Shown here piece after piece: positions 7,488-48,409 of a stretch of 64,000 nucleotides of DNA. Below the pieces are notes generated by a model. It did not search any database. It saw only the letters and a program-made list of their open reading frames with translations, and was not told the origin of the DNA. Source of the DNA: Eukaryota sp. GEM-RC1 (lineage: Eukaryota). The stretch lies in the NCBI GenBank assembly GCA_040285855.1, contig JAUFOQ010000013.1, forward strand, positions 124,001 through 188,000, written 5' to 3'. How positions within the stretch are numbered: position 1 is the first letter of the stretch; the number at the start of each line of letters is the position of its first letter. The translations under genes and the position numbers were made by a program.

Positions 7488-9061
7488 TTAGCACCTGATC
7501 CGATAATTTGAGATTCTTTTGATGACTTGTTCAGTCTGAGAGTCAGTATGGTTAGCAACTAGATTAATCTTAGTCACAGTGGAATTCACTTTCAAAGCTT
7601 CAGCCAATGCAATGGCACCTTCATTACCAATAGAGTCACTCTCAAGAGTAACCCGACTAACTGATCCGCTCCTCATTTTTTCCAAAACCGTCATCACTCA
7701 AAACTGTCATCACTCCAAGAATTGAGACGTTCAATTTCTTTTCTTAAGGAACCGTTGTCAATTTCCAAATTTAAAATTTGCTGGTTATGAGACTTTTGAA
7801 TGGCCTGAAGCTCATTGTTCAGAGTAGAAATACTTTCCACTTGTTGCAAAAGCTTAGAATTTTCATGTTGAAAGTTCGAGACCTTATAGGAGAAGTCCTT
7901 CTTTGCTTCCACCAGTTCAGTTCTCAACTTTACCACGTCAGCAGTGAGTGTGGCAGTCGATGATTGGATTTGAAGAGGGACCAATCGAAGTAAGAATCTG
8001 TTAAGTAAAGGCTCAATATCTATGTCATCAAGTAAATCAGATAAAGTCTCAGAAATGACGTTTACAGTCTCTGAAGTACACGTGAGGGATTTCAAACAAC
8101 TATTGAACTGTGAAATTGTCCAATCAGACTTCAAATTTTTCCAAGAATTGTATAAACATTTAGCAAGAAAAACAGAATCAACATTAAAAGAAGAAAGAAT
8201 TTCAAATACTTCTGGAGTTACTTTGATTCCATTATCAGTAGATTTGATTGATTTGAGACGTTGTCCATGTTTTTTAACAAACATGAGATCATTTAAAGCA
8301 CTTGCTTGTTCAATAAATCCTACATCAAAATTCACTTCTATAAAGTCATTTCCAGTAGTAACTACTGACTTTACTTGAAAATAGGATCCTAAATAGGTCA
8401 ATTCATAAGCATTTTCAGCAGTCAATTTGATTTCACTTCCACTCAAGAACTCAAAAAACGCTTGAAAACTTTCTCTTGACACGTTCAGCATATCATCAAA
8501 GCTAAGTTCTTGTTCATTTGAATCAGCCCATTGACTAGTCCAAAGGTTAGCAAAGTACTTAGAAAAACAACATAAGTGAAGCCTATTTGTTCTAGCAATA
8601 TAGTCTTTATACTTCAGTAAAACTTCATGAGGAGTTTCCCTCTTCAACTTTTCTAGAATAGTTGATCCTTGGAGAGAGAAGACGTTGGTGCTAGACTGTA
8701 CTCCTTGTCGTTGAAGGTCGGTGCAGTGGGAGATCAAAGGAGTGTACTTTAAGAGTTTTGCTATGAGAAGAATGTCAAAGAGATTGGTTTCGTTGATGTT
8801 TAATGGAGCGCCGTACATGGACAACATAATGGCTTCAAAGATCGAGGGATCTTCAACCATTCCCGAAGAGTTGATTTCAACGTGATCATGGCGATCTAGT
8901 TTCTCAAGGTATTTGGAAAAGAGGACGACAATGGAGAAGTGACAGTGGAACTCGAAGTCCTCGAACTGAATAACACAGTCAGTGAGAAGATTGTTGGATC
9001 GGAGATATTGTAGCTGTTGGATGGCTTCTTTGGAATAGGTAGGGACCGAGAGGTTTGTCAT
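7488..9061 (-). CDS. BTB/POZ x2 - coiled coil - short LRR protein, copy 2
   Basis: Near-identical paralogue of 2888..4225 starting MTNLS at 9061. The frame breaks at a 16-nt tandem duplication (7683-7714) before about 2 LRRs (ORF 7488..7697). Confidence 0.8.
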
Positions 9062-9223
9062 TTGAAGAGATTTAATTCTCAAAGTTGCACAATGCAATTC
9101 CCCCTTGAATAGCACTTTTGTCATTTTGAGAAATCACAGCTGCAACATAATGTATATGATAGAAGGAAGCTCTGTTCACAGTTTAAACAAGTTTAAACAA
9201 GTTTAAACTGTAAAACATCATGG

Positions 9224-10819: not shown

Positions 10820-12981
10820 ATGATTGCCGAAGTTGTTTTGTCCGTGGAGTCTAAACAGTCTGTTCTTGATTTCCAAGAGACTGTTTGTGAGCCTAAAATT
10901 AATTCATCAATTTCATTGACCTGTCTTTTTTGTGCTAAATCTGTTTCTGGGAGAAATAAATCCAATCGTCCACTTCTTGTGTGTTTTGATTGTTCACCTA
11001 CTGATGTATGTCGTTCACAATTTAGAATTCCTATCATGATATCTCCAATGGCGGCTGTTAATGTCGGGACTGCTCTTAGAAGTGTCACTCAAATTTTACG
11101 CGGTGGAATTTGGAAACCTGCACCTTTTGGCGATACATGTTATCAAATTGTTAAGAAATCCAGTAGAAAAATTAAACCTGTTCTTAAGTCTCAAGTTAGT
11201 GATAAGTTTCTTACCAAAAGATTTCAAAATCTTGTTTTACGAGGTCAGTTTTCTTCTGCTTTGTCCTCCCTTAATCACGCACTTCCAGCTGAAGTTTCTG
11301 TTGAAACTGTTGAAAAACTAAAAAAATTACACCCTTTTGAATAATTTTCAGGTAATCCGGTTGTTGGTGAGCTTTCTATGTCGTGCTGAACTAACAAACC
11401 TGTTTTAGTTGATGAAATTCTAAAATTAAAGTCGTCATCCCCTTCTGGTCGTGCTGCTGGTCCTTCTGGTATGAGTTTTGATCATTTTAAAATTGCCGTT
11501 AATGCTGTTCCTGAAATTTGTGAAGATCTTGCTGTTTTCTGTAATGAAGTTTTGCTAGGCACAAAGAAATAACCTCATGCTCTTTGCTCTTCTAGATTAG
11601 TGGCTTTAAACCAACCAAATGGTGGTGTGAGACCAATTGCAGTGGGTGAAACAATTTCTCGTATTTTTTCAACTTTGTGTTTTAGGAGAGTCAGAGATTC
11701 CTCTGTTGAATTCTTTAGACCGTTTCAATTTGCATTTGGAGTTCCTGATGGCACTACATGTGCTGCTTTAACCTCTGATTTTCTTCTTCATTCAAATGAG
11801 GAAAATGCCATTTTGAACATTGATTTTAAAAATGCATTTAATTGTGTTTTAAGGTCAACTATATCTGACGAACTTTCTGAATTTTTTCCTCAGTTGATTC
11901 CTTATTTTAATCTTTTTTTATGGTAAAGCGTCTAATTTAATTTTTTACAAGTTTGATATTAAATCAACTAGAGGCGTTAAGCAAGGTGATCCTTTGGGTC
12001 CTCTTTTGTGTTGTCTCGCTCTGCAAAAATTATTTAAAATCTTACAATTAGAATTTCCAACTGTTAAAATTAGTGCTTATGCTGATGATTCTTCGCTGAT
12101 CGCTCCAGTTGACGTTCTCAAAAAGTGTTTTTCACGTTTCATTGAACTTTCTTTGAGTATTAGTTTAACAATTAATTTTGATAAGTGTTTTCTTGTTGTT
12201 AAGTCTTCGAATGTGTCTAATCTTGGTTTTTGTAATATTCAAATCATCGATTATTCTACTCAATGTTTTCGTTTCCTTGACACATTTTTGGGAAATTATG
12301 AGAAAATTCATTCAGAATTGGAGTGTTCATTAACGACCATTGAAGAAAAACTAAATCAAATATTATCTTTAGATGTGAGTAAACATGTTTCCTTTGCTAT
12401 GCTTCAGGTCTGTTTTTCCGGGAAAATTAATCATTTTTTACGTTCATTAGACTATTTCCTTGCTGAAACATTTGCCAAAAAAATTCAATTTTATTAGAAC
12501 AAATTTTGTCTCTAACTTGGCGGAAATTGATGAGTCTATTTTTCCATTTCATGCTTTTTATTTTTCTGAATTCGCAGGAGTAGGTTTCACCCATGCAAAA
12601 ATCATTAGAAAATCTGCTCTTTTAGGAGGTGTTAAGAATTTTATGTTTGAATTTTTGAAACGGTTTCCCTTGGATGGAATCAATCTGTTGAATTCCAGTA
12701 ATTGCCGTTGGGTTCAATCTGCTAAAAATTTGGTATCATCCTTGTCTCCTGAAATGTGGGAAGATCTGTTCCCTGCTCATTTGAAGGAGACTCCTTTAAA
12801 AATATTTCTTCTCTGCCGTCTGCTGAGAAATTGTACAAGTTTGGTGTGAAGGTTAATGTTGATAAACGTAATCTTTTACCGGGTGGTGATGAAGTCGTTT
12901 GGATTTAATCTTAGTATTATTTGTTTGTTTTTACAATTTCATAGTTTTGTAGGAAGGTTACCTTATTGGGTGCCGAATAAA
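10820..12981 (+). mobile_element. CRE-like non-LTR retrotransposon (RT pseudogene, endonuclease domain deleted)
   Basis: RT motifs AAGPSG, GGVRPIAVGE, IDFKNAFN, GVKQGDPLGPLL and AYADD with stops and frameshifts. The last ~157 nt (12824-12981) are near-identical to the 3' end of the copy at 48719-48875 and end in AATAAA. Confidence 0.85.
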
Positions 12982-13387: not shown

Positions 13388-15646
13388 TCAAGACATATCC
13401 ATAAACCAATCATATTGCTGCTTCTTTTTGGCTGATTCAGCTAACTTCTTCTTATAACCTTCATCTAAATTCAAATTTGAAAATATCTCTGAACTACTAG
13501 TAACTACCCTCGAAGGAGATCCTGACCTCCCACTTTCCCTCAACTGTTTTCTCTTAGTTCTAGGCTTACTACACCTCCCCACATCGAAAGCAGACACGCT
13601 GGGGGGAAGGAACAGGTTTAGAAGGAGGGTGGGGAGGGGTGGGAAGGGTAACGTGATCATTTGATTGGTAATCATCTAGGGAGTGATTGTGATTGATTCT
13701 GGCCATTGAGTGAAGCAATCGATCACGTTCCATTTCTGACCGGGCAGCACTTGCCTTGAACTGATCGACTTGAATCTTGAGAGCTAATATTTCCTTTCTC
13801 GATTCTGTTTGAGCTGTATTTAAGGCATCTTGACTGTCATTTTCCAGTTGATTGAGAGCCTTTTTGAGCCTCACCACTTCATCACGTAGTTCTTGTAGTT
13901 CTTCTGAAGCCGCTTCTTTTTGTTTAATCACAGAAACCAATCTATCGTCATACTTATTACTGATTGAGGCGGTTAAGTGATCAATTGATTGACTCTGATC
14001 ACTCTTTAATTGATTGATTTCGGCCTTGTACTCGTCATGAATCATTGAAAGCTCTTCAGATAACTTGTTGTTATTTTGCTTGAGTTCTTCGAATTGATGG
14101 AGAGAATTCAAAAGACTATCACGTTGATGAGTGAGCTCTGAATTTTCAGTTCGAATCTCGGCAGCTTCATTTTCTAAAAGAGAAACTTTCTCACGTAAAA
14201 AAGTCAATTCATTGGTGAAACTGTTTAATTTCGACATCATATCCCCTTCTTTTCAAAATTCTGTGAAATTCCATTAACTTCTGATTGCATCTTATCAATT
14301 ATATTACGTTGCTCATTGATCTTCACTTTTAAACTTTCATTTTCATCTTCTTTTATCCTCATCTTCTTCCTCAATTCTTCAAAATTCTTAATGTACTTTT
14401 GTTCAACTTCTTGACGAACAGATTCCCTTTCATAATCTACAGTTTCTCTTAGCTCAACCAAATGTCGATTTTTTAAATCTGACACAACTCTAGTAATATC
14501 AGAAGACTTTTCTCTTGATAATGATTCAGAGATTTTGACCTTATCGTCTTCAAGTTTCCTTATTCGTGAGCCTAACTCATCAATGATTGATTGGAACTCA
14601 TCACGTTGCCTTTCCAGAGCCTCACCGCGTTGTCGTTGAAGCATTTCAATATCATCTGATAGCTGATGATTGCGATCTCTTTCCTTTTCATACAGAGTTT
14701 TGAACTGATTACAATCAATTTTGATTGATTGTAACTGATGGAGTAGTCGATCGTGATCAGCTTTGTTATCGTCAGTTGGAGGAGGAAAGTTTGGGGTCAG
14801 TGAAACTCCAGAAAGATTCATACGATCACGTAAAAGTCTTTCAATTTCTTTTTCGTATTTCTCTTGAAGTGAAGCGTATTCAGAAGACCATTCGTCTAAT
14901 TGTAGTTGTAACTCATTGTTTAAATTAGTCTGACATTTTAAATTTTCTTCTAAATTTTCAATTTTTGTCTCAAGAGGGTGAATGTCGATGGTGGTTGGAG
15001 CTTCTTGAAGTTGTTTTTGAAGGTCAAAAGTCAACCTTTTTTGAGCTACAAGGTCAGATTCCAATGACTCGATTTTAGACTCAAATGACGAAGTATCAAC
15101 AACTTCCATTGAATGTTGTTGAACTTTCTTCTCCAAATTAGCATTAGATATTTTAAAAGCAGACAGTTGAGATTCAAGTCGTTGGATTTGAGTTTCGTAA
15201 GATCTAGAGAGTTCCTGTTTTTCTTGCTTAGAAAGAGTCTGGGGACGAGCGTTCCTTTGTTTATCTTCAAGTTCATCATTTAGTTTCATTTGGAAAGAAA
15301 GCTTTGACTCGAGTTGTTGAAGTTTGGTCTCATAGCTATTCACAAGTTCATCTTTTTCTTTTTTAGACAAGTCACTCAGTTCAATCAGTCTGTTTTCAAG
15401 AGAAGAGAGTTGTGTTGTGACGTCTAGAGAGAGATCATCGTAGTCTGAAGAGTCTGGACTTTCATAATAGGATATCGAGGGAGAACCGGAAGCAGATAGG
15501 GTTGTACTAGGATGGTTCGTGGGAAGAGGTGATGAAGGAGATGGAAGATGTTCGCTATCTGAATACAGACCAGACGTGTTCAATTCCTGGTATTGTGGAG
15601 CAGCCCTTCTGGGAGAAAGTACTTTGACATCAATGCGAGATGCCAT
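13388..15646 (-). CDS. Long coiled-coil protein (about 750 aa), split by two homopolymer frameshifts
   Basis: Ser/Pro-rich N-terminus then heptad-rich sequence. ORFs 14237..15646, 13569..14240 and 13388..13675 join at a G/A run (about 14245) and a C run (about 13600). Confidence 0.7.
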
Positions 15647-15693
15647 TTAGCAAGTTTGCAAGAGTAAATGTCGAAGAAAACTTTTCATCCCCA

Positions 15694-17187
15694 ATGTCTG
15701 ATAATCGCCACAGACGTTCCTCTCATTACTCACATCCTTCACGTGACCGCTATGACTCTTATGATTCACGTTCTTCTAGAGACTCCCGAGATTCTCGGGA
15801 TTTTAGAAGCAGAGATAGAGACAGAGGTGGCTACAGAGACCCTCGTGACAGAGACAGGCCTAGACCTGGACCTTCTTACTCTTCCCACCAAAGTCGCCCT
15901 CCTAGAGACCGCCGAGACTCTTTCGACCATAGGGATAATAGAAACAGAGACTATCAACGAGACCCTCGTGACAGGGATAGAAGAGACAGATATCCCAACA
16001 GAAGACGTGAGAGAGAACCTGAACCTCAACGCTTCATCCCACCTCGTCCTCCTGTTCTAATAGACGCCCCTCCCTACAACATCCTCCCCAATGGTGACAT
16101 TGAACGTCGCTACTGTAAGCAAAGTCTATGGGACACTGAACCTGAAATGTACCCCACCATGTCCGTTGCTGAAGTTGCCGCCGCTGATCCCGAGTTCATC
16201 CTTGACTCTATCAACTCCAACGCTCCCATCTCCAACAGACATTCTCGTCGTCTCTACGTGGGTAATGTACCCCTGGGTATAACTGACTCAGACCTGGGTA
16301 CCTTCTTTAACTCAGCTCTTAAGAGTTCAGGAGCTTGTAAATTTGCTAATGTTGATCCAGTGCTGTCGTGTCAAATTAACCAGGATAAGGGATTTGCCTT
16401 TATTGAGTTCCATTATATTGAGGATGCTACAAGTGCGTTGGCTTTTGATGGAATTAATCTGCATGGAAATGCCTTGAAGGTGAGGAGACCTAAGGATTTT
16501 GGAACGGATCAAGATATGCTACCAGAAACACGTTTACAAATCGATCAAATACCAGGAATTATCAGGAAAAAGTGTCCTCCATCAGAAAAACGATTGATTC
16601 TAGGAAATATTCCTTCCTTTTTAAATGAAGATCAACTGAAACGTATCCTCCGGCCCTTTGGAATGCTAATGTCTTTCCAACTAATTGTTGATGAGCTTAC
16701 CCATGAATCTAAAGGATACGCATACTGCCAGTTTTGTAGAGAATGTGACACGCAGAATGTACTCCAATATTTACCATTGATTGACTTTTGCGGTTCATGT
16801 CTTAAAGTAGGTTTTGCTGACAGAAGTCCTCCTCCTCCAGTAAGTTGGTATTATCCAGCTGATGACGTGCCTTTAGACCTTCTTAGAGCTCGACAAAATA
16901 GTCACGTGATTCAAGTGATTGGTCTTCTGAAGTCAGACGACTTTGCTGGTTCTTTTGAGGATTTGATTGAGGATATTCAGTTTGAGTGTGAGAACTATGG
17001 TGTTGTTTTGTCACTATATGTACCTAAACCTGGTGACGTGGCTTTTGGAAAGGCCTTTGTACAGTATGAGCTGGATACTGATGCTCAGAAGGCTTTAAAG
17101 GAGTTACCAAAGAGAGCTTTTAATAACAGGAAGTTTCTGGTTTCACTGTATCCTCATGATTTGTATACCACTCAGAAGTTCTATTAG
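15694..17187 (+). CDS. U2AF2: Splicing factor U2AF large subunit (U2AF65)
   Basis: RS/RD-rich N-terminus, ULM tryptophan (SLWD), RRM1 RRLYVGNVP...KGFAFIEF...LKVRRPKDF, RRM2 and a C-terminal UHM. Likely start MSDNR at 15694. Confidence 0.92.
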   Translation: MSDNRHRRSSHYSHPSRDRYDSYDSRSSRDSRDSRDFRSRDRDRGGYRDPRDRDRPRPGPSYSSHQSRPPRDRRDSFDHRDNRNRDYQRDPRDRDRRDRYPNRRREREPEPQRFIPPRPPVLIDAPPYNILPNGDIERRYCKQSLWDTEPEMYPTMSVAEVAAADPEFILDSINSNAPISNRHSRRLYVGNVPLGITDSDLGTFFNSALKSSGACKFANVDPVLSCQINQDKGFAFIEFHYIEDATSALAFDGINLHGNALKVRRPKDFGTDQDMLPETRLQIDQIPGIIRKKCPPSEKRLILGNIPSFLNEDQLKRILRPFGMLMSFQLIVDELTHESKGYAYCQFCRECDTQNVLQYLPLIDFCGSCLKVGFADRSPPPPVSWYYPADDVPLDLLRARQNSHVIQVIGLLKSDDFAGSFEDLIEDIQFECENYGVVLSLYVPKPGDVAFGKAFVQYELDTDAQKALKELPKRAFNNRKFLVSLYPHDLYTTQKFY

Positions 17188-17464
17188 AGTTTGATTGGGT
17201 TGTGTTGGGGTGGAAGTTTCCTTTGAGCTCTTTTGATATCTGATCAGGTGATACTTTGAGTGATTGTAGTTTGACTTTATGGTTATTTTGTGTTTTGCGG
17301 AGTTTTTAATTATTTATAAATGTCCTGTTTACTGTATCTGAATCAAAGTCTATCTTAATTAAGGATATTAAATTAGGACTAATGATAATGTGGGAATATC
17401 ATAGAGAAATGATTCGAAATACAATGGAAAAGTATAAACTTAATACTACCAGTAGTACAAAGGA

Positions 17465-18100
17465 TCATCCCTTACATTCAGCTATAAAACTACAAATATC
17501 CTGATCATGAACATATTCATCTAATCTTTTAAGGTAAACAGGCAACAAGTTCAAAGAAATGTCTTGGCAAATAGTAGAAAGTACTGGAGAAGTAGATTTC
17601 AGTACAGAACAATGATCAAAAGCCATCCTGACAACATCGTACTGGAACTGCTTACTACCTATTAATTCTTTAATAGTAGAACTAATATCCTGACAAACGG
17701 CACATTGATCTTGGCTCATGTTTGTCTCTTCAAACATTGGTTCTAGGTATTTAGTTGGGTCTGGACAGAGGTTCAACATTGCACAAGCCTCATCTGAAGG
17801 AGTTGCAGCTACAACAAAAGAGATTGTGGGAAGAATGTAATTATTAGCGGTATCAACACAGCTTTTGGAGTATTGACCAAAGTGTTGGCAAAGGTCATTT
17901 ACATAGTCAACTACTCCCTTCATAATGACTGGATCCATGGCTAGCATTCTGACGTACTGCCAGGAAGCTCTACAAAGCATGCACTTTTGGTACTCCTTCT
18001 CGGAGGTTTTAGACTCAGCAGGATAGAACTCAAGCTTCGGAAATCCAACTGAGAGAAGGAGAGCAAGAAGTAGGGATGTTTGAATCAACTTAGATCGCAT
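17465..18100 (-). CDS. Secreted saposin-like protein with two SapB domains
   Basis: Hydrophobic signal peptide and two CxxC...C...C...C....C six-cysteine saposin patterns. Confidence 0.85.
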   Translation of the reverse strand: MRSKLIQTSLLLALLLSVGFPKLEFYPAESKTSEKEYQKCMLCRASWQYVRMLAMDPVIMKGVVDYVNDLCQHFGQYSKSCVDTANNYILPTISFVVAATPSDEACAMLNLCPDPTKYLEPMFEETNMSQDQCAVCQDISSTIKELIGSKQFQYDVVRMAFDHCSVLKSTSPVLSTICQDISLNLLPVYLKRLDEYVHDQDICSFIAECKG

Positions 18101-23204: not shown

Positions 23205-26095
23205 CTATCTTCTCTTATAAATCAAAACATAAGCCATTCTACTACAAACTCTGTCAGGACTCAGTGGAGTAGCTTTTGAATCGTCCATCTCATACCAACC
23301 TTTAGCTTCAGGATTGTACACGTATGCAGTGGAGTGACCCCCATCCATGTTTCCCTCGTGATTGGTAACTGCAATCAAATCATAAATTAATTGATTGGAC
23401 CCTTTCTGTTGAGGGTCAAGAACATATTTACTGATATCAAGTCCTTTCAAAGGAAACTCTACCAAATCTTCAATCTTACTATTATCCTTAAATCTTTTCA
23501 AATGAACAATTAAGTACTCAGAAGCACGATAGATGTCGAACTTCTTTTCAGCTTTCTTGTGTTCTTTACATTTAGGACAGAACCATTCATTCGTTTCATC
23601 AAGAGTTTCGGGTTGACAGAACAAATCCAAACACTCGGAAAGTTGTGAATTAGAATGAAGGCCAGTTTCAGATTTAAGAACTTCCGTTGAAAACTGAATC
23701 TCAATGTATTCAGAAACTGCCTTCTTGGTCTTCCATTGATACTTAACATTGATTGGAGAACTGTTTGAAGAGTAATAGTATTGAGGCCGTTTTGACTTGA
23801 GATAAGCATCGGATAATTCTTCAATTGGTGTTAAATGGAAAGCAGTGTGACCAACAGCCACTTTGATTTCACAATGATTTTCCCAACCATTAACCAAAAA
23901 TGTTTGATTGTAGACATTAATCGCACATTTGATCTCTTCAGCAGTGTTATTTTCTTCAGAGACAGCAAGTAAGAAGTTATGAGTGGTTTCAAACTGAGGA
24001 AAAGCATACTGAAAAATAGAAGGTTTTGGACCCTGATGAGAAACAATCACCAATCTTTTTTGATTGAAATCGATAATGGGAGCTAAAACTGTTCCCTGAA
24101 GTTCATAACAAATCAAAACATCAAAATGCGACTCCCATTGAATGTTGATGTGATCTTCATCAGATTTAGGGGAAAAATTTCCCAGCATTGTTGCTCTTGA
24201 CAGAAAAATAGAGCTCGTAGAGAGATTGAAATGTTTAGAAATTTTCATCTTCATTGAAGTAACATCAGGAATTACAGGACAAGGTAGTTTAAACTCAATT
24301 GTTCGGACGAATTTTTCATAAACATTTAAAAGTTGTAATGAGAATTCAATATTATGGATATTTCCAGCAGGAATTGGAACAGAAATTTGATTGGTTGTAG
24401 TAAAAGTGACACTAGTCTTTTTACAAGTAGGACACTTCAATTTTGACCTATACAAACTCGTAAAGAGCTCACCCACACGTGATTGATTATGTGCATTGAA
24501 TCTCTGAATAGATTCCTCAGCAATTCTAAACTCTTCTTGATCTGAATCAATAACAATATCAAAATTTGGCATTTGTCTAACTCTATTCAAGTCTTTCTGG
24601 AGATTGTCTAACAAAAATGAAAGGAACTCTTGGGAATCATGTTGTTTCAATAACTGACTAGCCATCATTTCCACTTCATGTTTAAGTTTGGTAGGAGTGT
24701 AAACAGAAGCCTTGCCATTCCAAAGATTCTGAACAGTTTCTCTCCATGCTAGAGCTATCTTTCCTTTACTTCCATTTGAATTGTTCTTGTTCAGATCTCT
24801 CTTGAATTCGTCTGAAAGAACAAACTCAGTGAGATCAACACAATGACTGATTGATTGAATGATTGAGTTCATAAAGCACGTGTTTTCGATGTTGGACAAC
24901 CCAGTGATACCCCGGGGGTTCACACCCACTTCTTTCTTAAGTTCCACCAGTTCAGCCCTCAAATTTGCCACGTCAGCATTGAGTGTGGCAGTCGATGATT
25001 GGATTTGAAGAGGGACCATTCGGACTAAGAATCTGTTAAGTAAAGGTTCAATATCCACGTCATCAAGTAAATCAGATAAAGTCTCAGAAATCACGTTTAC
25101 AGTCTCTAAAGTACACGTGATGGATTTCAAACAACTATCGAACTGTGACCTTGTCCAATCAGATTTTAAATTTTGCCAGGAATTACACAAACATTTAGCA
25201 AGAAAAACAGAATCAACATTAAAAGAAGAAAGAATTTCAAAGACTTCTGGAGTCACTTTGATACCATTATCAGTAGATTTGATTGATCTGAGACGTTGTC
25301 CATGTTTTTTAACAAACATGAGATCATTTAAAGCACTTGCTTGTTCAATAAATCCTACATCAAAGTTAACTTCTATAAAGTCATTTCCAGTAGTAACTAC
25401 TGAATTTACTTGAAAATAGGATCCTAAATAGGTCAATTCATAAGCATTTTCAGAAGTCAATTTGATTATACTTCCACTCAAGAACTCAAAAACCTTTGAA
25501 AACTTTCTCTTGACACCTTCAGCATATCATCAAAGCTAAGTTCTTGTTCATTTGAATCAGCCCATTGACTAGTCCAAAGGTTAGCAAAGTACTTAGAATA
25601 ACAACATAAGTGAAGCCTATTTGTTCTAGCAATATAGTCTTTATACTTCAGTAAAACTTCAGGAGGAGTTTCCCTGTTCAGCTTTTCTAGAATAGTTGAT
25701 CCTTGGAGAGAGAAGACTTTGTTACTAGACTGAAGTCCTTGTCGCTGAAGGTTGGTGCAGTGGGAGATCAAAGGAGTGTACTTTAAGAGTTTTGCGATCA
25801 CATGAATGTCAAAGAGATTGGTTTCGTTGATGTTTAAAGGAGCGCCGTACATGGACAACATAATGGCTTCAAAGATTGAGGGATCTTCAACCATTCCAAA
25901 AGAGCTGATTTCTACGTGATCATGGCGATCTAGTTTCTCAAGGTATTTGGAAAAGAGAACGACAATGGAGAAGTGACAGTGGAACTCGAAGTCCTCGAAC
26001 TGAATAACACAGTCAGTGAGAAGATTGTTGGATCGGAGATATTGTAGCTGTTGGATGGCTTCTTTGACAAAGGTAGAGATGGAGAGGTTTGTCAT
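23205..26095 (-). CDS. BTB/POZ x2 fused to a USP (UCH family, USP4/11/15-like) deubiquitinase, copy 3
   Basis: N-terminus paralogous to copies 1 and 2 (same T5 frameshift near 25490). USP Cys box GLSNIENTCFMNS, QHDSQEFL, two CxxC Zn pairs, YLIVHLKRF, His box HEGNMDGGHSTAY and WYEMDDS. Confidence 0.88.
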
Positions 26096-26544
26096 TTGAA
26101 GAGATTTTATACAATTTAAACTTCAATTCATAACCAACATATGAAGTTAGAACTTCTCTAGTTGATGCATAGTTGGTAATCACAAACTATTGGGGTCTGT
26201 CAAGAAATGAGTTTATGTGTAAATACAACCAAACAACACATAACTAAGTTACAGAAAACTACCTTCAAAATGATTGTGACTTGTTTAATGACTCATGGTT
26301 AATGGGTATTTCTAAGTCTGACGTAATGATATCGAAACGTTTTGAATCGAGAGATGTCAGTCGCTTTTGATTGTTGATTTAACACCAGAAGTAGTGATGC
26401 GGTGTCGTTTACTTCAAAGACTAGACTTGAACACTATGACTGGCAAATATTGTCACTATTAACGTTCTATTTGTTGTAAGGATTTGAGATTTGTGTACGT
26501 TATGATATTTTATCCAGAATAATTATTGAAGAAACAGATTTATA

Positions 26545-26560
26545 AGTGTTGAAAAACACC
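26545..26560 (-). terminator. Histone 3' stem-loop (H4)
   Basis: GGTGTT-TTTC-AACACT, 21 nt after the stop codon. Confidence 0.85.
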
Positions 26561-26581
26561 ATTTAATTGAAGGGAAACAAC

Positions 26582-26893
26582 CTAAACACCAAAACCGTAC
26601 AAGACACGTCCATGACGTTTCAAAGCATAAACAACATCCATAGCAGTGACAGTCTTCCTTCTAGCATGCTCACAATAAGTAACTGAATCACGGATGACGT
26701 TTTCCAAGAAAGTACGGAGAACGGTACGAGTTTCATCATAGATAAGAGCAGAGATACGTTTAACACCACCACGGCGAGCTAGACGACGGATAGCGGGCTT
26801 TGTGATACCCTGAATGTTTTCACGAAGAACTTTGCGATGACGTTTAGCTCCACCTTTACCAAGACCTTTACCACCTTTACCACGACCAGCCAT
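26582..26893 (-). CDS. H4: Histone H4
   Basis: [24 protein letters not shown]... near-canonical H4. Confidence 0.99.
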
Positions 26894-26970
26894 TAGAACA
26901 GATAATATGGAGAAGATTCAACATTTTGGAAGTTGAACTGAGATTGTCAAATTGTTGTGCATGAAAGAAT

Positions 26971-26980
26971 TTCTCGTGTT
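26971..26980 (-). promoter_or_regulatory. Histone upstream box (AA)CACGAGAA of H4
   Basis: About 80 nt upstream of the ATG. The same core occurs upstream of H3, H2B and H2A. Confidence 0.55.
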
Positions 26981-27197
26981 GAAGTCTTTGTTCATTGCTC
27001 AACACTTCTAAGCGATTTGTTACATACCATGAAACAGTTTATGATCTGGTGTGACACGAACTACAAGTGAAACATTTAGGAGTTTATCGGACAGTGTTGA
27101 AATAAACCAGTTCGAGTATTAACCACAATGGACAATTCAGTCAATGTTATGTAACAAAACAGAAAGAAACTAACAGGTTTTTTTATAGAATAGAAAC

Positions 27198-27213
27198 AGT
27201 GTTGATAAACACC
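27198..27213 (-). terminator. Histone 3' stem-loop (H3)
   Basis: GGTGTT-TATC-AACACT, 13 nt after the stop codon. Confidence 0.85.
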
Positions 27214-27226
27214 ATCGATTAAATAC

Positions 27227-27634
27227 TTAGAAATCCGAACGAATTCTCTTGGCTAAAGCCATATCCTTGGGCATAATGGTAACCCTTTTAGCATGAATGG
27301 CACACAAGTTAGTGTCTTCAAAAAGACCAACTAGATAAGCTTCAGCAGCTTCTTGAAGAGCTGAAATACCAGTGGCTTGGAAACGGAGTTCTCCCTTGAA
27401 TTCCTGAGCGATTTCACGAACTAAACGTTGGAAAGGCAGTTTACGGATAAGCAATTCAGTAGATTTTTGGTACTTTCTGATTTCACGAAGAGCAACTGTT
27501 CCAGGACGATAACGATGGGGTTTCTTGATTCCACCAGTAGCAGGAGCTGCTTTACGGGCAGCTTTATGAGCCAAATGCTTTCTGGGGGTCTTGGCAGAAG
27601 TGGTTTTACGAGAAGTTTGCTTAGTACGAGCCAT
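27227..27634 (-). CDS. H3: Histone H3
   Basis: MARTKQ...[39 protein letters not shown]. Confidence 0.99.
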
Positions 27635-27690
27635 GATAAGATGAAGTCATGGCAATTGTAAGGTTTTCGAACATTTCAAGGTACTCAGGA

Positions 27691-27730
27691 ATTCTCGTGC
27701 AGAGAATTTTGTAGTGCTTATTGTCGTGTT
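27691..27730 (-). promoter_or_regulatory. Histone upstream boxes of H3 (CACGAGAAT and AACACGACAA)
   Basis: ATTCTCGTG at 27691-27699 and TTGTCGTGTT at 27721-27730 on the + strand. Confidence 0.55.
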
Positions 27731-27935
27731 GGATTCATCTTCATTGAAGTGTGGTGTTTTCCCATGGTATAGGTTGTTTCAGTGGTAGTTGCCCAGCAGA
27801 CTTATATTGTAACAGTAATGATGCTCAGAATCTTTACCGATCGATGTGAGTTATTTTGATGATATTGAATCACATGTTGTGATGTGTTAAACAGAAAACA
27901 TGAGGAATACAAAGTAGAAGAAATTAGTTTATAAA

Positions 27936-27951
27936 AGTGTTGATAAACACC
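27936..27951 (-). terminator. Histone 3' stem-loop (H2B)
   Basis: GGTGTT-TATC-AACACT, 15 nt after the stop codon. Confidence 0.85.
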
Positions 27952-27966
27952 GATAATTGAAAGAAC

Positions 27967-28395
27967 CTATTCAGCTTCTCCAGAAGAACTAAACTTGGTA
28001 ACAGCCTTGGTTCCTTCAGAAACAGCATGCTTGGAAAGTTCACCAGGTAGAAGAAGTCTAACAGCAGTTTGAATCTCGCGAGAGGACAGAGTGTTTCTCT
28101 TGTTAATACGGGCAAGACGAGAAGCTTCAGTAGCAATACGTTCGAAGATGTCATTGACAAAAGAGTTCATGATACCCATGGCTTTGGTTGAAATACCAGT
28201 ATCGGGATGAACTTGACGCAAAACACGGTAGATATAGGTAGCCCAGGTCTCCTTACGGGCCTTCTTACGCTTAACTACAACAGGGGCACCACCTTCGGCA
28301 ACGGCTTTAGCGGGAGCCTTTGAAGGAGCTTTGGCTGGTACACCTTTGATAGACTTGGTGGATTTGGTAGACTTTACAGATTTCTTTCCGGGCAT
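27967..28395 (-). CDS. H2B: Histone H2B
   Basis: MPGKKS...[35 protein letters not shown]...[29 protein letters not shown]. The true ATG is at 28395. Confidence 0.98.
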
Positions 28396-28465
28396 TGTGA
28401 GTTGAATATTGAGTTTGAGGATTTCTTGGAAGAAGAACAGTTTGAATTCCAATGGGTCGCCACAC

Positions 28466-28500
28466 CACGAGAATCTCGGCCTCACCTGGATTGTCGTGTT
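28466..28500. promoter_or_regulatory. Divergent H2B/H2A promoter boxes
   Basis: CACGAGAAT (+, 28466) and AACACGACAA (-, 28491-28500) within the 146-nt intergenic gap. Confidence 0.55.
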
Positions 28501-28541
28501 CTTTTCTTATGAGAATTCATTTCCACCATAATTCTCTCTCA

Positions 28542-28922
28542 ATGTCTGAAGAAACTGGTGCTCGTACTCTCTCCTACAAAGCTGGACTTCAATTCCCCGT
28601 TGGTCGTATCCGTAGATATCTACGTGAAGGCAAGTATTCCGAACGTGTTGGTGCTGGAGCTCCTGTTTACATGGCTGCTGTCCTTGAGTATCTAACTGCT
28701 GAAGTTTTGGAATTGTCTGGTAACGCTGCAAGAGACAACAAGAAGTCTCGTATTGTTCCTCGTCATATTCTCTTGGCTATCCGTAATGATGAAGAACTTA
28801 GCAAGCTCTTGTCTCATATTATGATTCCTTCAGGTGGTGTTTTGCCTCATATTCACTCTGATTTGTTACCTAAAGGTTCCAGATCTCGCGATACCGCTGA
28901 GTCTGGCTCTCAAGAGATTTAA
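28542..28922 (+). CDS. H2A: Histone H2A with C-terminal SQEI (H2A.X-type) motif
   Basis: [11 protein letters not shown]...[41 protein letters not shown]. Likely ATG at 28542. Confidence 0.98.
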
Positions 28923-28935
28923 GTTGTTGACGTTT

Positions 28936-28951
28936 GGTGTTTTTCAACACT
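28936..28951 (+). terminator. Histone 3' stem-loop (H2A)
   Basis: GGTGTT-TTTC-AACACT, 13 nt after the stop codon. Confidence 0.85.
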
Positions 28952-29084
28952 TTTTAAATATAATATAAATCTGTTTTCCATTCATATGGTTACTTTTCGA
29001 ATTTAACGAACCTCCATTAGTGAAGTACGAAACCGATTCTGAAACACTTTGTTTTCTTCTTCCTTCATGTTACACTGACTAAGG

Positions 29085-30040
29085 AGTTTTAACCATACCT
29101 AGGAAATACAGATACACTGTATCCAATATTTGTATCTGTATCATAACATTGATTTGTATCGTGTATTCTGTATTTTGTGTGTTTGGTGTATTTTCTTCAA
29201 ACCCTTCAATTGAAACAGACAAAGAAGGTCCCACCAGTCTACTGCAGTAAAAAACAGTGTCCACAAATTTGCTTCCAAGGTTGAAAAGACATCAGATGTG
29301 GATTGAACTCAAAATTGTTAGATGAGCACACACAATAGCATTTGTTTTTTCCTTATTCCTCAATGTATGTTTGTTCTTTCCAATCATCTCTCTGATGTTA
29401 AAGCAACATCTCCTTTCAGTGTACTGAATAATATCTTAAAGAAGGAGGGAAACCTTATTATAAAGGGAAAAGAAGTTTTTCGAACAACAGTCACACTGAT
29501 GATAACTGAGTTTTGAAGTAATTTACATCCTTAGAATTTAACTGACGTAAAAATAGTTATTTATGTGATACATTAGGGTAGAACGGGAACAAAATGATTT
29601 TTATAAATACAATATATGGACTTCAGGGATGTACCAACATACTAGTATGTTCAACTTATCGAGAGAAATAGAAATGCATTCCCATATAAATGGAAAACAC
29701 AATCCGCTTTTTCCAATCAGACTTTCGAAACTTAGACTTCTTTTCTTTACAAAGTTCTTCAAGATCCTTGTAAAATTGTTCACCAGCAAGACTAATCGAT
29801 CAGGTTGGAAAAAGCGAAAGGTTGGAACAGAAATTTGGAATACATGTGATCCAATATATGTTGAACTGTGTTAAATACAAACTTGTCTAACAACAATGAG
29901 CAGTACAATGCCACGTCAACAGTGGAATCTTATGACCAAGGATGTCCTTGTATCTGTATCTGTATTTTTTATATGTATTCTGTATTTGTATCTGTATTTT
30001 GAAATGTTTTCGTGTATTTCCTAGGTATGGTTTTAACACT
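29085..30040. mobile_element. Non-autonomous TIR element with (TGTATY)n subterminal repeats
   Basis: AACCATACCTAGGAAATAC near 29091 inverted as GTATTTCCTAGGTATGGTT near 30014. A related end lies at about 35700-35790. No clear TSD. Confidence 0.6.
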
Positions 30041-36395: not shown

Positions 36396-38970
36396 TTACA
36401 TGAGTAAAATATACACATACAAGACAAAAATAAGAACAACGAACCAAGGACGTCGAAAAAAGCTTAACAAATAAATAAATCTGGATTTCAACTTTGATAT
36501 TTCTAATCCTCTAATTATCACGTGATTATTGACTTTCAAAGCCTTTGATAACGCCTTAACACCTTTATCATCAATAGAGTTTGAACCAAGGAAAATTGAT
36601 ACAACTCCAGTACTAACTTTCAGCGAATCAGCCAATGCACAAGCACCTTCAGCTCCAATAGAGTTTCCATACAAATCCATACTGGTCAATGTTTTATTCA
36701 ATTTCAGTGCATCTGCAAATGCACTAGCACCTTCAGCTCCAATAGAGTTTCCATATAGGTCGAGGCTAGTCAGTGTGGTATTGACTTTTAAAACTGCTGC
36801 CAATGCTAGAGCACCGTCAGCTCTTATGTAATTTGCACCGAGAAAAAGACATGACACTGTAGCATTGAGTTTTAAAGCTTCTCCTAAGACTCCTGCTGCC
36901 TCACATCCAATAGAGTTTGTACCGAGAAAAAGAGTTTTGACTGAACTATTCACCTTTAATGCTTCTGCCAGTGCCTTAGTTCCTTCAGCTCCAATAGAGT
37001 TACACCTTAGGTTAATACGTGTAACTGTGGTATTCACCTTTAATGCTTCTGCAAGTGCCTTAGTTCCTTCAGCTCCAATAGAGTTACACCTTAGGTTAAT
37101 ACGTGTAACTGTGGTATTCACCTTTAATGCTTCTGCAAGTGCCTTAGTTCCTTCAGCTCCAATAGAGTTACACCTTAGGTTAATACGTGTAACTGTGGTA
37201 TTCACCTTTAATGCTTCTGCCAGTGCCTTAGTTCCTTCAGCTCCAATAGAGTTACACCTTAGGTTAATACGTGTAACTGTGGTATTCACCTTTAATGCTT
37301 CTGCAAGTGCCTTAGTTCCTTCAGCTCCAATAGAGTTACACCTTAGGTAAATACGTGTAATTGTGGTATTCACCTTTAATGCTTCTGCCAGTGCCTTAGT
37401 TCCTTCAACTCAAATAGAAATGTTCCACAAATTTAGACTTGTAACTGAAGAATTAACTTTTAACGTATCAGCTAATTCTCTAACTTTTTCAATACCAATA
37501 GAGTTGTTTGCCAGGACAATAATTGTAGTATTGTTACCTTTAAGCCCTTCCAGTACTTCCTTTAAGGTATTACTTACTTCAGAACTACTACAGTTCAAGG
37601 AATTCTGATTCCTTGTTGCTTTCATAAAAGCACTCTGATACTGGTACACATAATTGAGAACCTTCAATGGATTTTCCACTAGCTGAAGCTACTCTAGGGA
37701 CACTTTCTCCTAATTTAATAGGGTTTTTGGTCTCGTTAAGACTGTGGATTTCATTCTGCAAATTACTAATTGTCTGATTCAACAAAAGTATCTGATGTTC
37801 AAATTGAGTTCGCATACTTAGAAAATCATTACAATGTTGTTTCGAAACATGAATATTGTTTGCCTCTAACTGAGAAATTTTACTATTCAACTGCTTTTTT
37901 CCAGCGCGTAGAAGATGAATTTGATCAACTTGAGATTGGTTTTTCTCTTGCAAAAAGTCAATTTTTTCCAGTAATAGTGAATTATCAATCTGTTGAAGTA
38001 CAGGCTCATAAACAGTTAAATTTTCCAAAACATCAATTAATTCAAAAATTCTAGGTCGTTGGACTGGATCTACTCTTAAACACCTATTAATTACATCAAC
38101 CAGGACTGTTGGTATACATTCATCAAACTGAAGTGATATTCCTCTTTGTTTAGCTCCAACAAGACCATACATGGACATCCCTTCAAATGCTTCCTTGTTT
38201 TCGAACAACTCATACAACACTATCCCAAGTGAGTATATATCACTGTGTGGAGTGAAAGTGTTCTCGAATTGCTCTGGAGCAGCATAGCGGACAGTCATTG
38301 CTCCAGTTCTAGGAACTGTTGAAGTTGAGGCAATGTTCCGAGATGTTCCAAAATCAGCTATTCTTATTCTTCCATCCACAACTACCACGTTTCCAGGCTT
38401 GAGATCGCCATGAACAACCGACTTACTGTGGAGATAGCTGATTCCTTGACAGAGTTGTTTGGCATACTCGACAGTGAGAGCAGAGAAAGAGTTGGGGGAG
38501 GGGGAGGGAAGAAGAAGCTCTTTCCATAACGATTCCAATGCTATCCTCCCAATAGCAGCGACCATAGACACGAAGTACAGCAGGATGATTCAGTTGGACA
38601 AGGAGGTTCATCTCTTTCTGTAGTTTGATTCTTCCCTTTTCAGAAAGGGATACCATTTTACAGCTACTGGAAGTTTAAACCATTCACATGCATAAACAAC
38701 AGCACATCCTCCTTCAGCGATCTTATCGAGGACTTCAATTTGTTCTGATGCGATTTTTACACACAACGCTCCTTCATGAGCTGCTTGTACTAAATCTCTG
38801 AGTGCATAGTTTGGATTCTTTTCTATGGGACAATCTTGGCGACAGATTGGACACCGTTTTAAGAACGACGCGCATTGAGCACAGACAGTATGTCCTAGAT
38901 CACAGAGGAGAAGTGGGAGATGTTGGGAGAGATCAAAGGAGTCACAGCAGACAAAACATTGAATTGACAA
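36396..38970 (-). pseudogene. RING finger - TKL-like protein kinase - coiled coil - LRR - C-terminal TM protein (disrupted)
   Basis: RING CFVC...LCDLGHTVCAQC...CPICR; kinase IAEGGCAVVY, VAVK, HGDLKPGN, DFG and APE; RI-like LRRs; hydrophobic tail. Three frameshifts, a GGA>TGA stop at 37410-37412, and no ATG. Confidence 0.8.
36945..37410 (-). repeat. Tandem 84-nt LRR-coding array (about 5.5 almost identical units)
   Basis: CACCTTTAATGCTTCTGC recurs at 36951, 37035, 37119, 37203, 37287 and 37371. Confidence 0.95.
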
Positions 38971-40946
38971 AGGTTCTTATTGAGAAATCTAATGTTATGA
39001 GAAACAACATAACAACATTCTAGTTTGTCTGGGAAAAAGGTTTCCACGTTTTCAAAACGCATTTTTATGTGTTCAATTCTCATATCTGGCCAATCCAATT
39101 TCTCTCTTCCAAAATTTCTGACATGTCAACACAGTCTAGTAAGTCGTGACGACAATGATGAAGGTGAAGTCGTTTCGATTGTAGACAAGGACGACTATTC
39201 GTCACTTTTCTCTCCCAGTGGCCGAAAAACCGACTCTAAAGTCGCTTGATTACATTGTGACAACGTTCTCTTTAAGATGGATGTCTCCTTGTATTAGATG
39301 GATAGACTGAACCTTTTGGTTGTTCACTTATGATCTTTAACATTGTTACACCTGATGGGGCAGTGTTATACGGATGTATTACCACTTTTGCAAATTTTAA
39401 AGATGACCATGCTATTTTTTTTAGAAATTAATAATGTTATTGAGTCAAATAAACCAACATACACCACCAATGGTGAAACAGAGATGATCAAAGTCGGTAA
39501 ACAAATTTAAAAGAAATTTCTAGGATTTATCAGTAGTCATATAAGTTGAAGGCACGGAGAAGTTTAGAATGATTTAGTCCAAGAACAAGATGAAATTGCC
39601 AATATACTTTTTGGTGGTTTGAAATTGAGTTTTAGGGAATTATCTCACTCAAGCAGTATCAATCTGTAGTATTTGCATAGTTTCTGTTGTACAAATACAA
39701 TTTAAAACCAGACCCGAAATTTACGTTTCCAAAACGTAATTAACGTTTCCATGCCGTTTCCATACTGATATGTTTATTGGAAACGTTTCTCGTAACACTA
39801 CTAAAAATACCAAAATTTTTACAAAGATTTTTACCCTTTCAACGACACTGATTTCCATTTCCACATCAGATCAAATATTCACATAACCTTACATGTACTG
39901 ATGCGTCCGCTCTTACGTTTGTATTCCACAAACTTCCACACTTGTTTTGAAATCCGCTCATGTTAATTGTTATCTTAACAGTTAAATTTGCTAATTTTCC
40001 AGTGGTCAGATACATGTGTAGATATTAAAACGATAGACAAGGGACATGTGTCAACAAATCGGAAGACTTCTTAACGAGATCTATTTTTGCTTGCTAGTTA
40101 ACAACCTTTGATGGTACACTTATAAATGAAAGCTTAAGAACCACTGTAATACCAAAGGAGATAGACTCCGTTTTAATGAGGACAAACTCGCTGCTAAGCC
40201 GTTTTAAGTCGATGTTTTAAGTAGTGATGAAAGAAAAATGGGGACACATGTCTAGGTGGATTTTGTAACGTGTCAGAAACAATGTTGAGTTTATTGTTCA
40301 ATCAAAGCCAGTACTAAATTACTTCAATGCAAAAAGCAATCCAATCATGTAAAAGTGATTCTGTTCCGAACATCGACTGAGAGGGGAATCATATGGTTAA
40401 GTAGGGTTTTAAGTTGATCCTATCAGTATGAAAGTTCTTCTAACTGTAAAAGCTCATTCAATCGAATGTATGTATGTTGCGTTTTTCCCGTTTAAAACAA
40501 AAAAAAGTATTCTTTTGGATGTCAAAAATGAAACTCTCATATCGGAATAAGTCTCACTGAAACTATTTGTAGTGAGACTAATTGAAACAATGGGTGTAGT
40601 TTATTGTGGTATAACATGTAGAAAAACATTCCAGTCAAACATTATAGAAGACAATACAAGGGTACCTACCAGGTTTTCTAGGCTTGATGCAAAGGCACCG
40701 TGTGCACACGTGTGTGAAAACCGACACGTGGGAAATTTCGAACACAAATTTCAATAGCAGTTGCAAAAATTGGACAATATAGTAATCATATATAACGTAA
40801 TTTTATAAGACTTATCACTGTACATTACACAAACTAGTTGTGGTTATAAATAAACGATATTAATGCCAACTATGTTTATAAAGTTCCAGAAATGCTGATA
40901 ATAAACGATACAAATTCATTCGAAGAATTGCAAACATTTGTTATTA

Positions 40947-46157: not shown

Positions 46158-48263
46158 CAGTCTTCCCCCGGTTTATGTCCACCTCTTGGACTGGACATAA
46201 ACCGAATTTGGACATAAACCGGGGGTTGCTTCGGTGCAGAGTGAACAGATATCTATGGGTCTTTATTGTTATGTGAAATAAAAGCTAAAGTGAGGGCCAT
46301 TCTACTGATGATGGTGTTGTATCAAGGGGTTCTACCATATCGGAGAGAAAGGTCTCCAATTCTAAGACGGTGATATCGTGAGAAATTTCATTTGAATCCT
46401 GGAAATGCAGCCATTGGCAGAGTTGTAGGACACTTTCGTTCATAACAGGAAGCAGTTGTAACAAGTTTGAGGGAGCGTTTAAAGACATAGACGGATCTTG
46501 AAGAAAGGATGTTATGTCAATACGAGAAGGATTGCAAAGTAGAAACCGACGATTGACAGCAAATAAAAAGTTTTGAAGGGAGTATAGAGCATTCAAGGCA
46601 TCGTATTCTGATAGCAATGAAGAGGATGATGTCTTCTCACATTGAAAGTTCTCAGACTCTAGCAAGATGTCCAAGACTGAATCCACAACATAGTCTCTTT
46701 CCATGCTTCTTCCTTCTTCTTCATCGCCTGTTACATCTTGATCATATTCGTTAAAGACGGTTCCCATGCTATCATCCATTCTTAACTTTTTCGATCAATG
46801 TTGTCTTTCGCCAACAGTTGATGATTGACACAGCTCCTACCTGATCCCATGCAAATTTACATAGCTCCACTGCTTCATATAGGGTAAAGTCACGCATTGC
46901 TCCTTTTTGCTTGAATATATAATTTACTATACCTCTCTTATAGTAGTTTTTAAACGCTTTGATAACACCTAAATCCAGAGGCTGTAACTTACTCGAGGTG
47001 TTTGGCGGAAGGAACTCTAGACGCACATTACTGAACTCATCTTCAATCTTGTGAGAAGGAACGTTATCTACTAAAAGAAGGATCCTTCTTCCTTGGGATC
47101 TCATCTCCTTGTTGAGGGTGTACATATAGTTGTAGAATATCTCCTTTGTCATCCAACCTTTAGCATTGTTGGTATAAACTAAGTAATCTCGAATGTTTTT
47201 TCCTTTAAAATGATGTGGATTCTTTGCTTGTCCAATCATCCAAGAATCCAGTTTCTCACCAATAGCACTAACAGTGAGGACAAGTGTCACTCTATTCTTG
47301 AAATTCTTTTTACCATGTAATTTTGTGAGAGCAGATATTGTCTTGGTTGGAAGTGCTTTCCAAAATAACGCGGTTTCATCCATGTTAAAGACATTATGGA
47401 TTGGGAAGTTATTGATGATCATGCGAATATCAATTATACGAGTAGCATGTAAAGCAAGGTCAACACTGGCCTCTTCTCCGTGAATAGTCTTTAGAGAGAG
47501 ATTATGGCGCTTCTTGAATCGCGTTAACCATCCATTAGATGCGGTAAATTGTGAGTCCAATCCTATTCTATCTGCTATCCTAAGCCCTATCGATTGTAGA
47601 AGCCACTCTGTTATAATAATACGGCCATCTAGTTCTTCAACAAGTTTGGCCAGAATTTGTTCGAGGATTGGATAGTCGGATGACTTAGATGACTTATATG
47701 GTCCAGAATCAGGTCTTGCTGCTGTGCGAATCCTACGTACAGTTCGCGGAGAAACAGAGATATTGTACATAGAATTCAGATGGGATACCATCGCTGTTTC
47801 TGAAAGACCACTATCATGGGCAAACTGCCATACATATAGTTTTTCATCCCCAGTTAAGCGGATACGAGTCTTTACATCTGCACGTCGTCGTCTTTTGGGT
47901 GGTTGTAATGCGATTTGGTTGCAGTTGCTGGAGGAGGGAGTCAGTGGTTGTTGTGTTGAGGTATTAGAGGTTTGAGTTGAGGGAGACAGTTGTACTTGTT
48001 CGTCAAGAGCTGTAGGAAACACTGAAGTCAATTCAGATGGAAAGTGGACAGCGACTAGGCTATCAATAGTATCATTGATACCATCAAGCATTATGTAATG
48101 AAAACGGTAAGTAACAATGTTTATTGAAGAAATAAGAAGGAGATCGGTCGATGAACGATCAACGGAGAGAAGAAGATCGATCGACAAAAGTCGGACAGGA
48201 AAATTTTGGACATAAACCGAGTTTGAACATAAACCGAATTGGACATAAACCGGGGGAAGACTG
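46158..48263 (-). mobile_element. Full-length pogo/Tigger DNA transposon
   Basis: Perfect 24-bp TIRs CAGTCTTCCCCCGGTTTATGTCCA, TA target duplication at 46156-57 and 48264-65, and subterminal GGACATAAACCG repeats. Confidence 0.95.
46285..48091 (-). CDS. pogo/Tigger transposase (HTH, CENP-B HTH, DD30D, acidic tail)
   Basis: FTASNGWLTRFKKRH, FNMDETALFW, LLLVDNVPSH and LPPNTSSKLQPLDLGVI, with 30 residues between D2 and D3. One frameshift at an A5 run near 46787 joins the acidic tail ORF. Confidence 0.92.
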
Positions 48264-48409
48264 TACAAAAGATTAAATTTTTTCAATTTCATAATAATAT
48301 TTTAAGATCTAAAATCTATAGGACTTTTGCGTTCTTTTTAAGTGGATATAGTTCATCTATATAAAATACAACTTTTTAAATCTATTTTTTAACACAAGAT
48401 AATTTTGAA

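Follow-up and report, generated by a model that had tools for sequence, protein, structure and literature searches.

Histone stem-loops that differ from the metazoan one are already widely described in protists and early fungi, some together with a poly(A) signal and some lacking it. Divergent non-metazoan examples were reportedly surveyed by Davila Lopez and Samuelsson in 2008. A 2026 preprint (10.64898/2026.10.14.759114) gives hairpins in 214 of 310 protist species, SLBP (stem-loop-binding protein) in the metamonad Monocercomonoides, and hairpins combined with a poly(A) signal in early fungi; in Physarum, hairpin and poly(A) signal are found together with two SLBPs (PMC8600027). The locus described here lies in a stretch of 64,000 nucleotides (referred to as the window) from Eukaryota sp. 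GEM-RC1 (assembly GCA_040285855.1, contig JAUFOQ010000013.1, positions 124,001 to 188,000 of the forward strand). The window contains a compact cluster of four intronless core histone open reading frames (ORFs), each followed by the same 16-base element, predicted to fold as a hairpin. The element is probably a diverged histone stem-loop of the SLBP type, and is best read as an addition to the divergent stem-loops described outside Metazoa.

The H2A of the cluster is closest to a named protein of Eukaryota sp. GEM-RC1 (97% identity), and the next-closest proteins are those of TZLM1-RC, presumably S. litria, and TZLM3-RCL; all three correspond to Skoliomonas isolates. Skoliomonas are free-living metamonads, and the BaSk clade is sister to Fornicata (10.1101/2023.05.03.539051), to which the closest studied relative, Giardia, belongs. 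The core histone genes of Giardia intestinalis have a promoter motif (him) and a poly(A) signal, and no stem-loop (PMC1872034); Giardia is cited as lacking SLBP in PMC11529991. Each histone gene is present in Giardia as 2-3 dispersed copies, whereas here a compact four-gene cluster, many paralogues and a hairpin are found. Because BaSk is sister to Fornicata and Giardia has neither hairpin nor SLBP, a uniform hairpin on the four core histone genes of Skoliomonas would place the loss inside Fornicata. The value of the locus is phylogenetic: a hairpin retained in the sister group of Fornicata, beside the loss in Giardia, would help to date this loss, and would add a metamonad example for the ancient origin of the SLBP/stem-loop module. 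It also supplies an exact query for seeking the binding protein and the coexistence of hairpin and poly(A) on one mRNA. The current picture is not overturned, such hairpins being already known across protists. No histone stem-loop of Skoliomonas or of barthelonids was found in the literature searched, the preprint supplements and the 2008 survey being outside its scope. In the main text of the preprint there is no mention of Skoliomonas, Barthelona, GEM-RC, Giardia or Trichomonas, which its supplementary tables may include.

The histone quartet and its shared element

The cluster is a histone quartet (a term defined in PMC13525598). The genes and the predicted stem-loops (with the distance between stop codon and element) are the following:

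26582..26893, minus strand: histone H4 gene, intronless ORF, 103 aa
26545..26560, minus strand: predicted stem-loop after H4, loop UUUC, 21 nt from the stop
27227..27634, minus strand: histone H3 gene, intronless ORF, 135 aa, with a PF00125 match
27198..27213, minus strand: predicted stem-loop after H3, loop UAUC, 13 nt from the stop, 3 extra pairs possible
27967..28395, minus strand: histone H2B gene, 142 aa, 99% identity to GEMRC1_004266 of Eukaryota sp. GEM-RC1
27936..27951, minus strand: predicted stem-loop after H2B, loop UAUC, 15 nt from the stop
28542..28922, plus strand: histone H2A gene, 126 aa, probable start at 28542, divergent from H2B
28936..28951, plus strand: predicted stem-loop after H2A, loop UUUC, 13 nt from the stop
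27093..27108, minus strand: degenerate fifth copy of the element, with 2 mismatches, located between H3 and H4 at 105 nt past the H3 copy

The pattern GGTGTTTWTCAACACT (GGTGTT-TWTC-AACACT) has four exact matches in the window, one per core histone gene and always in the sense orientation, in agreement with an initial annotation of this DNA that had placed the same hairpin 13-21 nt after all four stops. The sole variable base among the four copies is a loop position. When up to 3 mismatches are allowed, 7 matches are found in the window versus 2.0 expected, a number reached in none of 100 shuffles. In the four 60-nt flanks, the longest common word with one free column has 16 bases (maximum in 3000 Markov simulations: 10). 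The inner inverted repeat GTGTT-N4-AACAC is confined to these four places, and the element is missing from the flanks of the 14 non-histone ORFs considered (0/14), so that within the window it is restricted to histone genes. The 3' untranslated regions (UTRs), initially described as otherwise unrelated, are not entirely so: all histone flanks open with the stop followed by GT, TTCAATTA is found before the stem in both H4 and H2B, and 13 nt starting at TATAAA are common to H4 and H2A. The fifth copy shares TCAACACTGT with the H3 copy; no hairpin is predicted for it, and it was considered as either a relic or a chance match.

Folding was evaluated in contexts of several lengths. In 36-nt contexts, all four copies fold as a 6-bp stem with a basal G-U pair and a 4-nt loop, as the initial annotation had it, with 3 additional pairs for H3 and energies of -4.0 to -6.5 kcal/mol. 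The 6-bp stem and 4-nt loop are kept in 4/4 copies in 26-nt contexts within 300 nt of a histone stop (RNAfold), and stem pair probabilities in 48-nt contexts are 0.55-1.0. The basal pair exists on the sense RNA only, as G-U; on the antisense strand it becomes A-C and is lost.

Searches outside the window gave no further copy associated with histones. The exact 16-mer was found at 56 places in viral contigs, none of them within 400 nt of a histone match, and these occurrences were read as chance. A metagenome scan with a lineage-specific H2B stretch (at least 599 stretches) returned, among the matches listed, 13 unrelated eukaryote H2B loci (70-82% identity, over a short segment only) and no relatives; no hairpin is shared by the 3' flanks of these 13 loci, two of which are cut before the stop. 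In the viral scan, 3 giant-virus histone loci were found, all without the element. The giant-virus contigs L001-L003 carry fused H2B-H2A and H4-H3 doublets, without a shared 3' hairpin.

Concerning the genes themselves, an in-frame upstream ATG at 28452 (which would give an H2A of 156 aa) was discarded as the likely start because the H2As of the sister species have only 127-128 aa. Protein comparison indicates many H2B paralogues in all three Skoliomonas species. The H3 tail is unusual with respect to canonical H3: it has T instead of S10, within RKTTSAK, H four residues before K27, and A instead of S28. Several annotated GEM-RC1 histone paralogues (P0031, P0122, P0124, P0129, P0039, P0055, P0125) have shifted C-termini or internal deletions, which are either assembly errors or decayed copies. 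A search for a frameshifted histone paralogue reading through the hairpin found none, and P0129 stops before it.

Comparison with SLBP-bound hairpins

Two features, a G-C pair in position 2 of the stem and a U in position 3 of the loop, are diagnostic across eukaryotes according to the preprint (10.64898/2026.10.14.759114), and the G of stem position 2 (G7) is the only base-specific contact of SLBP (PMC10388802). Both are present in 4/4 copies. They are rare in the background: among the 487 other 6+4+6 hairpins of the window, G2-C15 is found in 42, of which 18 also have loop U3 and 5 have loop U1 in addition; 2 are left when U6-A11 is added and none when G1 is added. The element is read as an SLBP-type hairpin because these conserved positions (G2-C, loop U3) match, and we infer that it is homologous to the SLBP-bound hairpin and that an SLBP is present in this organism.

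The likeness to the metazoan element (GGCTCT-TTTC-AGAGCC, RF00032) that the initial annotation proposed is correct for the 6+4+6 geometry, the G1-G2 start and the U-A closing pair; the UUUC loop is found in H4 and H2A, whereas H3 and H2B have UAUC. Both systems also have in common the loop bases U1, U3 and C4, and a hairpin that follows the stop codon at a short distance in core histone genes that are clustered and intronless. Identity, as estimated by eye, is 8-9 of 16 bases: pairs 3-5 are changed on both sides, pair 1 is G-U instead of G-C, and pairing survives all 7 stem differences. Taken as covariation, this comparison presupposes the homology that it should support. The predicted fold is less stable here (-4 to -6.5 versus -7 to -10 kcal/mol in metazoans).

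The divergent non-metazoan state named "SLBP-SL-PAS" (10.64898/2026.10.14.759114; Physarum, PMC8600027) offers a closer parallel: a diverged 16-mer that keeps G2-C and loop U3, a fold energy within 0 to -8 kcal/mol, and a variant poly(A) signal that follows. The present element differs from it by a new sequence that is unusually uniform and unusually near the stop, and by an SLBP that is here only a presumed partner. No match to the SLBP family (SLBP domain PF15247) was found among the 71 window ORFs scanned, of 84 listed. A degenerate pattern derived from an SLBP motif gave 0 matches in viral contigs and 4 in bacterial genomes, all judged to be chance on translation. Near-matches of the region in Rfam (CRISPR repeats, snoRNAs, mir-2010, UPD-PKc) were rejected, their scores being far under the gathering thresholds.

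Downstream TATAAA and promoter motif

A TATAAA hexamer follows the hairpin in all four genes, as had been noted initially, 33-41 nt from the stop. Its UAUAAA form in the mRNA is best read as a variant of the poly(A) signal and would be used as such:

26539..26544, minus strand: TATAAA after the H4 hairpin, 0 nt gap, TCTGTTT next, candidate poly(A) signal variant
27182..27187, minus strand: TATAAA after the H3 hairpin, 10 nt gap
27928..27933, minus strand: TATAAA after the H2B hairpin, 2 nt gap
28964..28969, plus strand: TATAAA after the H2A hairpin, 12 nt gap, TCTGTTT next, as in H4

A shared word of at least 6 bases arose in this post-hairpin stretch in 262 of 20000 simulations. AATAAA is absent within 110 nt of all histone stops. 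TATAAA may be the general poly(A) signal of the organism; in comparison, trichomonads use AAUAAA and Giardia uses WGURAA (PMC11529991). In the same source, direct RNA sequencing of protists, including trichomonads, gave mostly polyadenylated histone mRNAs. A histone downstream element (HDE) rich in purines, such as that paired by U7 in metazoans, was not found: positions 6-25 downstream of the hairpin have a purine fraction of 0.30-0.50 with 0-1 G, AAGA and AAAG are absent in 40 nt, and the loose AAA test for an HDE used in the preprint (10.64898/2026.10.14.759114) would be passed only by the AAA of TATAAA. Elsewhere in the window, a palindromic TTTATAAA lies at 17313-17320, in the middle of the spacer between the convergent RRM gene 15640-17187 and ORF 17465-18100, and could be the poly(A) signal of both.

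The histone 3' end of Caenorhabditis elegans (hairpin, AATCC element, AATAAA; CDL-1) is alike in that its hairpin is a variant specific to the lineage, with a hexamer of the poly(A) type and a stretch rich in U shortly after it, and its mRNAs nevertheless end 3-6 nt after the hairpin (PMC1924863). The present locus, known from DNA alone, differs by lacking a conserved block of 32-36 nt and an AATCC-like element at a fixed distance.

Upstream of the genes, the motif CACGA[GC]AA has 6 matches in the window. Five of them fall in the three spacers that hold the histone promoters, and each histone gene has a copy in sense orientation at 65-103 nt from its ATG (the gene and the distance upstream of its ATG are given for these five):

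26971..26978, minus strand: CACGAGAA, H4, 85 nt
27692..27699, minus strand: CACGAGAA, H3, 65 nt
27721..27728, minus strand: CACGACAA, H3, 94 nt
28466..28473, plus strand: CACGAGAA, H2A, 76 nt, within the bidirectional spacer between H2A and H2B
28491..28498, minus strand: CACGACAA, H2B, 103 nt
7254-7261, minus strand: sixth match, outside the histone spacers

Significance depends on the null model. Under a loose one the motif is not significant, some 8-mer with one free column being shared in 71% of 1000 simulations; a stricter one (5 or more matches that cover all three spacers, with no more than 6 elsewhere) was satisfied by 1 of 300 random triples. The motif is reminiscent of the yeast SCB cell-cycle box, and is a candidate cell-cycle element on the basis of its sequence. 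Its presence in all histone promoters supports co-regulation of the four genes. It is paralleled by the him motif of Giardia, which is also a histone-specific upstream motif on all four genes, with a different sequence (PMC1872034).

Alternative readings and other features of the window

Several results weigh against the element being an SLBP-type stem-loop followed by a used poly(A) signal. None of the 6 stem pairs varies among the four copies; the stem being invariant, the data therefore show no covariation, and the covaried stem of the initial annotation is recovered only against the metazoan element, where homology is assumed. The Infernal comparison with Rfam Histone3 that had been proposed as a check gave no match at E<=10, either over 26300-29200 or when the ends of H4 and H2B were scanned as 61-nt pieces. 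Full affinity of human SLBP needs flanking adenines, two 5' and one 3' of the stem (PMC10388802); these are absent here, the 5' flanks ending in AT, AT, TC and TT and the 3' flanks beginning with T, G, T and T. The distance of 13-21 nt from the stop is under the 25-60 nt of metazoans (10.64898/2026.10.14.759114). By the tests run, the element is thus outside RF00032 and the canonical U7 system. The predicted fold is marginal: the hairpin alone has -3.5 kcal/mol, the z values of the four 36-nt contexts are -2.19, -2.61, -3.56 and -0.65 (with folds as good in 7, 5, 2 and 52 of 200 shuffles), an 85-nt H4 flank favours a different fold, and once 60 nt upstream are added the stem pair probabilities of H2A are down to 0.30-0.42 and those of H4 and H2B to 0.46-0.66. 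The four genes represent a single locus, at which the hairpin is documented, paralogues in relatives having been compared as proteins. The enrichment of TATAAA behind other ORFs is weak. In a hand-picked set of 14 non-histone ORFs, the status of several being uncertain, the first 110 nt contain it in 1 case; the first 300 nt contain it in 8 cases on the sense and in 6 on the antisense strand (shuffle mean 4.2). Finally, in the supplement of PMC11316075, the H4-family gene g1719 of Skoliomonas sp. GEMRC is in the top-100 poly(A)-selected list (1168 fragments per kilobase per million, FPKM) and is the only entry named histone in the file for four species, with no H3, H2A or H2B named. This expressed H4 gene cannot be tied to the present locus; the entry is weak either way, because this link is absent and because multi-copy genes would split the reads.

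Hairpin and SLBP could be the same and the mRNA end different. Mature mRNAs would then lack poly(A) and stop a few bases past the hairpin, and the role of TATAAA(N)CTGTTT, as in C. elegans, would be that of a terminator, of a poly(A) site kept as a fail-safe, or of a downstream element particular to the lineage. We consider this arrangement possible, and the less probable of the two ends. It has the nematode precedent on its side, together with the single histone entry in the poly(A)-selected lists of four species and the identity of H4 and H2A over the 13 nt that start at TATAAA. Against these stand a variable hairpin-to-TATAAA spacing (0-12 nt), a downstream composition unlike that of a U7-paired HDE, and the mostly polyadenylated histone mRNAs of protists in direct RNA sequencing (PMC11529991); per-gene FPKM values would moreover be diluted by multi-copy genes. 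A polyadenylated end is somewhat favoured over an end at the hairpin. That the element arose by convergence and is recognised in the RNA by some protein that is not SLBP, such as one that binds 3' UTRs by their sequence, or belongs to the cleavage signal of the lineage, seems distinctly unlikely. The exact 6+4+6 geometry, G1-G2, the U-A closure and loop U1/U3/C4 speak against it, as does the persistence of SLBP in another metamonad, Monocercomonoides (10.64898/2026.10.14.759114). This explanation would fit the low identity to the metazoan element, the absence of an Rfam match, the absence of hairpin and SLBP from Giardia, in the sister clade, and the fully invariant stem, which suggests sequence readout.

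It is very improbable that the element acts as DNA, as an inverted-repeat site (GTGTT-N4-AACAC) for a dimeric factor by which transcription is terminated or the histone genes are insulated. At the DNA level the 5+4+5 core forms a perfect inverted repeat, confined to these four places in the window, AACAC also begins 3 of the 5 promoter motifs, and an RNA structure has no proof from covariation; all four copies, however, are in the sense orientation and follow the stop within a narrow range of distances, one polarity is held by the T-W-T-C loop and by the asymmetry of the outer G/T, and the SLBP-diagnostic positions are rare in background hairpins. Chance or an assembly artefact can hardly be entertained: apparent frameshifts are seen in the named-proteome paralogues P0031, P0122, P0124 and P0129, but the four genes are different ones, their ORFs are intact, and they share 16 bases where the null model reached at most 10.

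With the SLBP-type stem-loop retained as the preferred reading, the following mechanism may be proposed. The four genes would likely be co-transcribed through the CACGA[GC]AA promoter motif, and each mRNA would have a short 3' UTR that includes the hairpin, to which a co-adapted SLBP would bind so as to control translation or decay. For cleavage, UAUAAA and the U-rich tract would be more likely guides than U7. Coupling to S phase might be achieved both by the promoter motif, for transcription, and by the hairpin, for translation and decay. A bolder version, which we hold to be unlikely, is that Skoliomonas has a histone regulon of its own, composed of a private CACGA[GC]AA motif, a re-coded stem-loop and a histone-biased UAUAAA-CUGUUU, and read without U7 by an SLBP too diverged for standard searches or by a replacement protein. 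If true, this regulon would be a living intermediate at the branch where the ancestors of Giardia lost the pathway and changed the poly(A) signal.

Other features were observed in the window. Right after H2A, at 29086-30037, lies a non-coding segment of about 950 nt resembling a miniature inverted-repeat transposable element, bounded by 25-nt inverted repeats (92% complementary) that have no further occurrence in the window. A repeated modular family and a RING-kinase-LRR run are found at 2885-5096, 7694-9124, 23205-26095 and 36399-38976; the family combines a BTB domain and a shared spacer region with variable C-terminal parts (LRR repeats, ubiquitin hydrolase), and several of its members look split into adjacent ORFs. 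Reverse transcriptase fragments, a Tc5/pogo-type DDE transposase, and a split RNB-domain gene within an A+T-rich stretch are found at 11573-12494, 46775-48301 and 62031-63128.

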